Source of the DNA: a virus
Direction: 5' to 3' (one strand)
IMG/VR virus record: IMGVR_UViG_3300008262_000024
Span: 1-64,000 of that record
DNA length: 64,000 bases
Shown here: positions 536 to 6,861 of the stretch, piece after piece
Numbering within the stretch: the stretch's first letter is position 1
Layout: the number at the start of each line of letters is the position of its first letter
Position numbers and translations under genes: made by a program
The notes under the pieces: generated by a model
What the model was told of the DNA's origin: nothing
The model's database searches: none
Seen by the model: the letters and a program-made list of their open reading frames with translations, nothing else

Positions 536-609
536 GGTTCTGTAGCTCAGTTGGATAGAGCAACAGCCTTCTAAGCTGTGGGCCATAGGTTCGAATCCTA
601 TCAGAATCA
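536..609 (+). tRNA. tRNA-Arg(UCU)
   Basis: Cloverleaf: GGTTCTG/CAGAATC acceptor stem, TAGCTCAGTTGGATAGAGC D arm, ACAGC-CTTCTAA-GCTGT anticodon arm, ATAGG-TTCGAAT-CCTAT T arm; CCA not encoded. Confidence 0.95.
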
Positions 610-640
610 CAACTATAGGGGTATAGTTTGTGTGTTTGTG

Positions 641-4792: not shown

Positions 4793-5002
4793 ATGACAGG
4801 TTATGAACCAAATTACATGAGATTTGTAATGCATGGAGATTATAAAATGGTAGATCCAAGTGGTGGACCATATCTTCAAATAGGAACTAATCTAAAGTAT
4901 TATTTTGATGTAAATGAAGATATGATTATATCTGACATGATGTTTAACAAAGGTCACATTGTATTTATTTTAAAAGATGGAAACCAAAATTCTCAAAAAT
5001 GA
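4793..5002 (+). CDS. Hypothetical phage protein
   Basis: 69-aa ORF with VDPSGGPY motif, tightly packed. Confidence 0.65.
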   Translation: MTGYEPNYMRFVMHGDYKMVDPSGGPYLQIGTNLKYYFDVNEDMIISDMMFNKGHIVFILKDGNQNSQK

Positions 5003-5558
5003 AATTTGGAAAGATGTACCTTCTTTTATAGGAATATTACAAGTTTCTAATTTTGGTAGAATAAAACGTCTAGCTAAATATAGAAATACTAAGAGTAATG
5101 GTAAAGCTTATATGTTAGATAAGATATTAAAACAATCTATATCTACTTATGGTTACTATAAAATTTGTATATCTATTGATAATAATAGACATGATTTACT
5201 TGCTCATAGATTAATAGCTGAAGCTTTTGTTCCTAATCCTGATGTCAAACATCAGATAAACCACATCAATGGGATTAAGACAGATAACAGCATTGATAAT
5301 TTAGAATGGGTTAGTTGTAAAGAAAACATAAGACATGCTCATGCTGCTGGTTTATCAGCAATGCAACCTAGAGGTGCTGCAAATAAACTATCTGAAAAAT
5401 TATATCAATATGATTTAGAAGGTAATTTTATTAAAGAATGGACAGGTATTAGAGAAGCTTGTAATCAACTTAAAATTGACAGATCAAACATGAATCGCCA
5501 TCTTAATGGTAAAATTAAAATTTTAAAAAACAACAAATTTTCAAAAACAAGATTATGA
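4977..5558 (+). mobile_element. Free-standing NUMOD4-HNH-NUMOD1 homing endonuclease gene
   Basis: EIWKDV..QVSNFGRIK (NUMOD4); HRLIAEAF..INHINGIKTDNSIDNLEW..ENIRH (HNH); QYDLEGNFIKEW..IREA (NUMOD1/HTH). Confidence 0.92.
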
Positions 5559-6400
5559 AGATTATTAAACAAAAAACTAAGACACTCGTAACACGAGATA
5601 ATGGACGTAGCTCAGATGCTATTAGTCCTAATTTTGTGTACGGGTGTCTTTGACTTGGTGGTTGTATGAATTCCTACTGCTATGTAGGTAGACATAATGA
5701 TAGTAAAGTATTTGTCAATGAGAATGTTGATGCAATACTAATGTCTATTTATAATTGGTCTACATCTCAAAGATGGCCCAAAGTACCAAATCAAGTAGAT
5801 GAGAAATACTATGTTATTGATATAGGTTGTAGTACAGATGTATGTTTACATGGTAAGTATTATGATTGGCAAAAGGTTTTTGACTTTTTTAACAATCATC
5901 CATGTTTAAAATCTACATTTGCAACCAAATATCCATCCAGATTTAGAGACTATAATTTAGTTAAGGATAAGCACAGAATTAGAGTTAGTTTGATGCCACA
6001 AGTTTATTCAGATATTCTAGAACCTAATACAGATAGTATAGATACTAGAATTAGTATGATACCTAAACTTCAAGAGAAGATGGAGGTACATCTTAATTTT
6101 AGTCCTATCATATATCATGATAATTGGCTAGAACATTACAGAGAGTTATTTGAGAAACTAAAAGGTATAGATTTTAAGTCAGAATGTATATTCTTGACTT
6201 ATAATAATGTACAGTTTATCAAGAATGACAAACAAGTTAATGAACTATGTTGGAAACCTGAAATTCAGGAAAGAAAAGATTCACAGTATGCTGCTGATAA
6301 CATCAGATACAAATGGGATTTGAAAGCTCAGATGATTAAAGATTTCAAGGCTTTATACAGTGAATACTTTGACCTATCTACAATCAGGTACATATTTTAG
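5555..6400 (+). CDS. Spore photoproduct lyase-like radical SAM protein, interrupted by an in-frame TGA at 5651-5653
   Basis: ATG 5555 overlaps the HNH stop and reads MKIIKQ...SSDAISPNFVYGCL*LGGCMNSYCYV, in frame with ORF 5666..6400; downstream DIGCSTD, TFATKY, RIRVSLMP, EP.T..I..RI, VHLNFSPII and IRYIF resemble SPL-family proteins. Confidence 0.8.
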
Positions 6401-6408
6401 TATCTTTG
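6401..6408 (+). promoter_or_regulatory. Bacteroidota -7 promoter element
   Basis: TATCTTTG ending 5 nt before ATG 6413. Confidence 0.6.
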
Positions 6409-6412
6409 TAGT

Positions 6413-6655
6413 ATGAAACAACTGGTAATAATAGCATTGTTATTTGCTTCTTGCAGAACTAATTATATTATTACAGAACATATAGAAGTAACTATGAAAG
6501 ATAATAGTAGAGATACTGTTAAATTAGTTTATTTTGATGAAACTGTTATTGATAGTTATGTGCAAGAATGGTTGTTGAAAAATAATAATATTGATCCAAA
6601 ACAAGTATTATCAACAAAAACTATAAGAAAGGAAAGACGTAAAGCATTTAAATAA
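6413..6655 (+). CDS. Putative small lipoprotein
   Basis: MKQLVIIALLFASC lipobox-like signal. Confidence 0.7.
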   Translation: MKQLVIIALLFASCRTNYIITEHIEVTMKDNSRDTVKLVYFDETVIDSYVQEWLLKNNNIDPKQVLSTKTIRKERRKAFK

Positions 6656-6861
6656 TGAGAGCTATACTCTTATTACTGTGCTTGGTGTCTTGTACTCCTA
6701 GTTTTCATGACTCTCATTATAGGAAGAGGTATGTTCCTAATAAATGGGTTAGAAAACATGTACCAGTAATTAAAACTGGCACATATAGAAACCCTTTAAT
6801 TAAAAAAGAAATCAGGCAACAAATGCTTGTACCTAAAACAATAAATTTAGATAAATGGTAA
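6655..6861 (+). CDS. Putative small basic lipoprotein
   Basis: MRAILLLLCLVSC lipobox-like signal; coupled by TAATG overlap. Confidence 0.65.
   Translation: MRAILLLLCLVSCTPSFHDSHYRKRYVPNKWVRKHVPVIKTGTYRNPLIKKEIRQQMLVPKTINLDKW

Follow-up and report, generated by a model that had tools for sequence, protein, structure and literature searches.

Natural translational bypassing is known from very few systems, namely gene 60 of phage T4 and its relatives, the byps elements of yeast mitochondria (Magnusiomyces capitatus) and a candidate in Streptomyces phage Hau3, for which a 10-nucleotide (nt) UUA bypass has been proposed (PMC5009743, PMC10732093). In T4, polymorphisms alone gave no protection from the homing endonuclease MobA, while the 50-nt gene 60 insert did, and some phages retain the gene 60 bypass after loss of the endonuclease (bioRxiv 10.1101/2022.08.31.505936). 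Hops over a stop codon have been obtained with synthetic constructs in Escherichia coli (Weiss 1987, as described in PMC5009743), and the 2016 review of recoding, which lists such constructs, knew of no natural occurrence (PMC5009743); no later natural stop-hop was found in the literature from 2012 onward. The window analysed here, a stretch of 64,000 nt of DNA from a freshwater phage (IMG/VR virus record IMGVR_UViG_3300008262_000024, positions 1 to 64,000), carries a gene of the spore photoproduct lyase (SPL) family of radical S-adenosylmethionine (SAM) enzymes, in which a TGA stop stands between two identical leucine codons within the cysteine motif, immediately downstream of an HNH homing endonuclease gene. 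The insert may shield the rebuilt SPL target from the HNH enzyme and be skipped in translation by a +6 hop of the peptidyl-tRNA-Leu, a reading to which we give about an even chance. The broader proposition is put forward with slightly less than even confidence: that this would be the first natural and evolutionarily kept in-frame stop-hop, in which the 6-nt patch of the HNH element breaks the endonuclease's own target and the hop erases the patch, as an independent and minimal counterpart of MobA/gene 60.

The locus resembles the MobA/gene 60 system in having an HNH gene within a phage gene, in a part that is conserved and critical to function, a short insert that lies near the endonuclease gene and is found with it, sometimes also after its loss (locus L168, described below, is the parallel), and matched take-off and landing codons with the stop next to the take-off codon. 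It differs in the gap, which is 6 nt instead of 50 nt and leaves no room for homology with the T4 element, with bypass and protection both predicted for the present locus; in the lack of any detectable stem-loop, Shine-Dalgarno-like element or special nascent peptide; in the rebuilding of the gene by a duplicated 5' segment, whereas the T4 gene is split into two open reading frames (ORFs) with added tails; and in its target and enzyme, which are an SPL-like radical-SAM protein instead of a topoisomerase and an I-HmuI-like endonuclease. The synthetic stop-hops of Weiss, Dunn, Atkins and Gesteland (1987) were engineered and of low efficiency, whereas the present case is a natural, conserved series of alleles. 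With byps and Hau3 it would share short coding inserts that translation skips, a disruptive insertion being made harmless, but those inserts are of 10 nt or 27-55 nt, are often frame-shifting, have structures of their own and show no link with a homing endonuclease, whereas the insert here is in frame and minimal. The I-HmuI family and other homing endonuclease genes (HEGs) that insert into ORFs, e.g. MobE in nrdA, are comparable in domain architecture and PDB match, in presence/absence polymorphism between near-identical genomes and in short co-converted flanks, but there is neither an intron nor an intein at this locus, where the gene would be restored by 5' duplication together with the proposed skipped stop.

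The SPL-family gene (5555-6400) reads TGT CTT TGA CTT GGT GGT TGT ATG in one frame at 5645-5668 (TGT, 5645-5647; GGT GGT TGT, 5657-5665; ATG, 5666-5668; the remaining codons are placed in Table 1), and the frame is open on either side of the TGA. Its start codon (ATG, 5555-5557) overlaps the HNH stop as ATGA (5555-5558), and both this overlap and the stop between identical CTT codons are as reported in a preliminary description of this DNA. The read-through protein scores 42.2 bits against the Pfam SPL family (PF20903; cut-off 27) and has exactly two codons more than its homologues, which read YGC--LGGCMxSYCY; the TGA and one adjoining Leu codon make up a 6-nt insert (L-stop-L) inside the Cys motif. 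Among stops flanked by matched codons between long open stretches, this site is the sole coding-strand case in the 92.8-kb genome (92,842 nt, 29.7% GC), while a second one, CCA TAG CCA at genome position 83,696, is spurious, lying antisense to a gene of 845 amino acids (aa).

The profile of the phage protein family matches the solved spore photoproduct lyase PDB 4FHC (E=1.4e-8), and the phage motif GC-LGG-C-xxSY-C-Y aligns on GC-MGH-C-H-Y-C-Y of that structure. By profile match the family is assigned to the SPL-family radical-SAM proteins, while SPL activity is only putative, since the motif is CX3CX4C (C-LGG-C-MxSY-C), with a second spacing two residues longer than in Geobacillus SPL, instead of the canonical CX3CX2C. 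The preliminary description had held that skipping from one CTT to the other restores the CX3C spacing of radical-SAM enzymes, and for that part of the motif it is borne out. Relatives of the SPL protein form more than 1300 clusters in the protein database, all of them metagenomic; no match was found in GenBank phages by tblastn, nor any PHROG family or any relative in GTDB genomes. About 230 homologues have a readable N-terminus, and 221 of them contain C-L-GG-C, with A, M or N replacing L in a few. Two others (P0080 and P0169, protein level) read C-LQL-GG-C, and seven are gene calls of 244-246 aa that start at the Met just past the second Cys, as expected of a gene caller that meets an in-frame stop upstream. 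This residue, Met38, is conserved in insert-less homologues too.

The in-frame stop insert is not an assembly artefact, because Logan contigs (contigs, not raw reads) from three other studies carry the stop and cross 5651-5653 without a gap (X6 record 20, 1852 nt, 4859-6710; X4 record 11, 5000-5686; X8 record 26, 4954-5686), which agrees with the earlier prediction that the 6 nt are real. No 6-nt deletion is listed among the Logan contigs at the site. In X8, contigs other than record 26 have the sequence ...TACGGGTGTTTA joined directly to GGTGG at 5657 and represent an insert-less allele from the same sample. An assembly or sequencing error, a reassigned code or a suppressor tRNA would account for the presence of an in-frame stop and for nothing further, and the probability left to this group of explanations is negligible, as five other alleles have a stop at the same place. 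Stop reassignment is excluded by the occurrence of both TGA and TAG alleles, by TGA acting as terminator of the HNH gene and by the absence of a suppressor tRNA from the 92.8-kb genome, whose only tRNA is tRNA-Arg(TCT) (window 536-610), reading AGA; long ORFs are intact under translation table 11. Selenocysteine and pyrrolysine are rejected on the same ground, both TGA and TAG being found at the site.

The census of alleles draws on IMG/VR, one pattern scan of Joint Genome Institute (JGI) metagenomes and protein-level inferences, and the scanned pattern fixed Y-G-C-(YTN)-(NNN)-(YTN)-G-G-C, imposing neither a stop nor CTN. In IMG/VR, 79 of 80 SPL loci are insert-less, and the remaining locus, L012, whose protein is 68% identical, has the sequence TGT CTT TAG CTC GGA GGC TGC and is the only true SPL returned by the pattern there; matches L081-L085 are non-coding or unrelated chance matches. 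The JGI scan returned four SPL loci, all with a stop: L167 (CTT TGA CTA), L168 (CTT TAG CTA), L169 (CTT TAG CTA) and L170 (CTT TGA CTT). Together with the window these make six DNA-level insert alleles, which share ancestry and are not to be counted as independent events; the stop is TGA in the window, L167 and L170 and TAG in L012, L168 and L169. The string GGG TGT CTT T-R-R CT is invariant across all six, and the nucleotide 3' of the stop is C in each. Although the pattern admitted YTN, the landing codon is CTT, CTA or CTC in 6/6 alleles and never TTR, whereas 61 distinct insert-less alleles use TTA (31), CTT (11), CTA (8), TTG (4), CTG (2) and CTC (1) at this Leu position, and all four Gly codons. 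Drawn from this background, landing codons that are all CTN have a chance probability between 0.06 (3 independent lineages) and 0.009 (5 lineages). At the insert, a stop is found in at least 10 alleles versus a sense codon (Gln) in two.

The protein encoded upstream is an HNH homing endonuclease with three Pfam domains above cut-off (HNH_3, 46.6 bits; NUMOD4, 41.1 bits; NUMOD1, 27.7 bits), matches to PHROG HNH families and a match to I-HmuI (PDB 1U3E, E=1.3e-11); about 27 cluster representatives share at least 62% identity with it. When searched by tblastn against the 80 IMG/VR SPL loci, it matches only L012, where a homologue of 64% identity lies directly upstream of SPL, with a ratio of non-synonymous to synonymous change (pN/pS) of 0.36 between the two endonucleases. 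None of the 79 insert-less IMG/VR loci carries the HNH gene, in keeping with the prediction that HNH-less homologues read CLGGC; a profile (alignment) scan of IMG/VR for the HNH family gave nothing beyond the L012 contig, and a single-protein scan gave only distant HNH genes in unrelated contexts. In the metagenome insert alleles the HNH gene stands upstream of SPL in L170 (95% identity), L167 (81%) and L169 (80%), and at protein level HNH P0133 is paired with truncated SPL P0009 on a 2254-nt contig and P0134 with P0157 on a 3160-nt contig. The proposed co-occurrence of insert and endonuclease is therefore upheld by five of the six DNA-level alleles (window, L012, L167, L169 and L170) and breaks down in L168. 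That contig (L168:1-1219) has the insert and neither the HNH gene nor the second, upstream SPL copy described below, the small upstream gene abutting SPL, and its SPL is changed at otherwise invariant residues (G45A, R46I and E56T); it has the appearance of what remains of a cassette whose SPL gene is decaying, or else of a product of repair from the cassette-borne copy. The HNH stop and SPL start also overlap as ATGA in L012 (2995-2998), L167 (1292) and L170, as in the window, and because of this shared overlap the rebuilt SPL gene is suggested to be translationally coupled to the endonuclease gene.

The anatomy of the cassette is apparent from direct repeats around the HNH gene, the upstream one termed copy A and the downstream one copy B, which are found at 2354-2435 and 3001-3082 in L012 (72% identical) and at 690-738 and 1292-1340 in L167. 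In L167, the N-terminal residues of copy A are those of the insert-less allele P0162, which the SPL body of L167 also matches, while copy B has the cassette-type residues common to every insert allele (V12, V28, then L-stop). Copy A is thus the 5' end that the recipient already had, and copy B comes with the endonuclease and rebuilds the SPL gene. About 23 HNH relatives were aligned, and many begin with an SPL N-terminus that continues in frame into the start of NUMOD4; in about a dozen the fused piece extends from SPL residue 1 to 28 and in others to residue 16, 11 or 9, while it is essentially gone from the window HNH. Copy A in relatives P0125-P0141 is trimmed to 28, 16, 11, 9 or about 0 codons according to lineage; such shortening of the direct repeat would make the endonuclease gene less prone to loss by recombination.

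These allele comparisons show a mobile element made up of the HNH gene, SPL codons 1-32 and the stop, invading the 5' end of the SPL gene, and the earlier suggestion that endonuclease and insert form one mobile cassette fits the behaviour of the pair. Within one SPL cluster at 90% identity there are two body haplotypes, each represented by an insert-less protein of 279 aa and an interrupted one of 244 aa whose bodies are identical, and such near-identical bodies with and without the interruption indicate recent homing. Between the window and L012, the proportion of synonymous sites changed (pS) is 0.33 in copy B, 0.64 in the HNH gene and 0.94 in the SPL body. Divergence switches at the stop, ahead of which 7 of 21 synonymous sites are changed whereas the 22 codons that follow it are saturated (Fisher P = 0.001), and the tract common to the cassettes ends at the stop and insert. 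Copy B is also compositionally foreign to the genome, as it contains 4 CpG in 99 nt, whereas the whole 92.8 kb contains 159 (P = 3e-5), and both the 747-nt SPL body and the 69-aa upstream gene contain none.

In the proposed mechanism, the endonuclease would cut insert-less alleles at or near the sequence of the Cys motif, and copy B, by rebuilding SPL, would recreate the native target beside the endonuclease gene unless that target were interrupted; the 6 nt sit exactly there. The insert would spoil the cut site in the rebuilt gene and confer self-immunity, like the 50-nt gap for MobA in T4 gene 60; the end of the common tract at the insert is indirect evidence for such protection. During translation the ribosome would pause with the stop in the A site, and the peptidyl-tRNA-Leu would leave CUU and re-pair with the CUN codon 6 nt downstream. 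Nine nucleotides would then be read as one Leu and the native CX3C motif would be made. Three features of a bypass site are present in the sequence: matched take-off and landing codons, a stop directly 3' of the take-off codon, and conservation of the site in evolution with coding constraint on both sides.

Whether the gene is decoded across the stop was judged from the substitutions on either side. Copy B keeps its start codon, frame and protein sequence (pN/pS 0.13-0.23). Relative to the window, it has 7 synonymous versus 3 non-synonymous changes in L012 and about 10 versus 7 in L169 (P ~0.002 under neutrality), and this shows purifying selection on the cassette-borne 5' copy. Downstream of the stop pN/pS is 0.1-0.3, although conservation of the body alone is no proof of decoding because the invasions are recent. 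From the stop to Met38, all differences among the alleles in the L-G-G-C codons are synonymous, and L012 retains 88/88 family-invariant residues.

These three observations argue against a dead gene, i.e. a purely selfish cassette in which SPL yields no full-length protein after invasion and the stop merely rides with the endonuclease, which we regard as improbable. Such a cassette would be compatible with the recent invasion seen in the identical interrupted and uninterrupted bodies and with the changes at invariant residues in L168, and a HEG spreads whatever SPL does; but copy B evolves with the cassette and nevertheless keeps start, frame and residues, synonymous-only change in L-G-G-C after the stop would have no reason if N-terminus and body never formed one protein, and L012, with its full set of invariants, is a deep cassette lineage. 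The same constraints argue against termination followed by a new start at ATG 5666, or an enzyme split in two, giving a 244-aa protein with or without a 32-aa peptide, which is very improbable. The ATG lies 12 nt past the stop and gene callers do report 244-aa products, but these would be without two of the three cluster cysteines, Cys37 between stop and ATG would be in neither piece, the codons from stop to ATG are under coding constraint, and the conservation of Met38 in insert-less homologues speaks against a dedicated start.

Two further observations concern copy B at the nucleotide level. In copy B (window 5555-5650; L012:3001-3096) pS is lower than in the HNH gene with which it travels (0.33 versus 0.64), and the last 24 nt ahead of the stop (CCT AAT TTY GTG TAY GGG TGT CTT) hardly vary among the six alleles. 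This synonymous conservation might be a signal at the nucleotide level, serving either the hop or immunity to the endonuclease, or it might be due to chance, the tract being short.

A stop that is decoded may be either hopped or read. The same cassette and immunity could operate with the stop decoded by near-cognate readthrough (Trp at UGA; Gln, Tyr or Lys at UAG), provided that the CX5C enzyme still works, and we consider this unlikely. The C directly 3' of the stop in all alleles is in its favour, UGA-C being a weak termination context in E. coli, as are the sense derivatives, in which CLQLGGC stands on two SPL bodies that retain the family invariants; other radical-SAM families, e.g. QueE, tolerate longer first spacings. 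The hop is preferred to readthrough, first because a stop has persisted through deep cassette lineages even though its identity alternates between TGA and TAG. If readthrough sufficed, a stop-to-sense mutation would raise the functional product with two extra residues many-fold and would sweep, whereas the stops persist at an HNH pS of 0.64. Secondly, all take-off codons are CTT and all landing codons belong to the CTN box, although TTA is the commonest codon here and CTA to TTA is a synonymous transition; readthrough has no need for the flanking Leu codons to remain so. Thirdly, skipping regenerates the CX3C spacing that about 220 of about 230 relatives strictly keep.

A frameshift of the prfB type has also been considered. 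The window has the CUU-UGA-C heptanucleotide with GGG three nt upstream, as in the prfB +1 frameshift site, but a ribosome shifted to +1 would read 5 codons before reaching a stop in the window, and a single codon in the TAG alleles. Since the +1 frame runs into a stop and TAG alleles exist, the site is not a prfB-type sensor of release factor 2 (RF2), and the coupling of SPL output to RF2 put forward in the preliminary description is not general, three of the six DNA-level alleles using TAG, which is read by release factor 1.

Several findings weigh against the hop and immunity proposal. A stimulatory RNA structure around the site is unsupported: the fold has z = +1.33 versus shuffles, the covariation term of the consensus fold is +0.56 kcal/mol with a compensatory change in 1 of 31 predicted pairs, and a hairpin at 5585-5597 has no counterpart in L169 and L168. 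The GGG three nt upstream is invariant in the six alleles and may be inherited. Because CLQLGGC occurs in P0080 and P0169, whose SPL bodies differ, and P0080 keeps the family invariants, the enzyme may tolerate two extra residues, or the phage may do without SPL function; a sense codon with CX5C spacing, which the preliminary description had named as the mark of a simple nonsense mutation, is found in these two derived Gln alleles. The matched Leu codons could have been inherited from a 6-nt tandem duplication (TGTCTT/TGACTT) without being selected, and the six DNA-level alleles are related by descent. The L168 allele combines the insert, the absence of HNH and changes at invariant residues such as R46 to I. 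Synthetic stop-hops in E. coli reach an efficiency of about 1%. Bypassing at slow-to-decode codons is described as low-level in later literature (PMC10732093).

The allele series offers a testable candidate for a natural stop-hop with built-in controls, comprising insert-less alleles, TGA and TAG stops, CTT, CTA and CTC landing codons and the Gln derivatives. If the hop is true, the idea drawn from MobA/gene 60, of a selfish endonuclease that shields its target with an insert ignored by the ribosome, would extend to the smallest possible size, and some reported 'readthrough' sites or 'pseudogenes' beside homing endonucleases would be hops. For annotation, a single in-frame stop beside a homing endonuclease gene does not necessarily mark a pseudogene. 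The features of the locus are collected in Table 1.

Table 1. Features of the interrupted SPL locus, in window coordinates.
Feature	Position	Strand	Evidence
Small conserved gene upstream (69 aa, family unassigned), flanking the cassette on the left	4793..5002	+	Homologues upstream in L170, L167 and L168
HNH homing endonuclease, I-HmuI-like (NUMOD4 + HNH_3 + NUMOD1), 193 aa	4977..5558	+	Pfam, PHROG and PDB matches
Copy B, cassette-borne copy of SPL codons 1-32; start overlaps HNH stop (ATGA)	5555..5650	+	Direct repeat with copy A elsewhere
Proposed take-off codon CTT (Leu32)	5648..5650	+	CTT in 6/6 DNA-level insert alleles
In-frame TGA stop in the Cys motif	5651..5653	+	Sequence; aligned stop in other alleles
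Proposed landing codon CTT	5654..5656	+	CTT, CTA or CTC in 6/6 alleles
SPL-family radical-SAM body (recipient backbone), LGGCMNSYCY to the stop at 6398-6400	5654..6400	+	Pfam SPL; aligns to PDB 4FHC

The 69-aa upstream gene has no Pfam or PHROG match and is syntenic in only 2 of 80 distant SPL loci, which makes it unusable as a general marker of the left flank. In L169 (reverse strand; oriented positions 565-828), an extra ORF of 88 aa and of no known family lies between the HNH gene and the SPL start. CpG is about ten-fold below expectation over the whole genome, and this depletion suggests that a restriction or modification target containing CG is strongly avoided.

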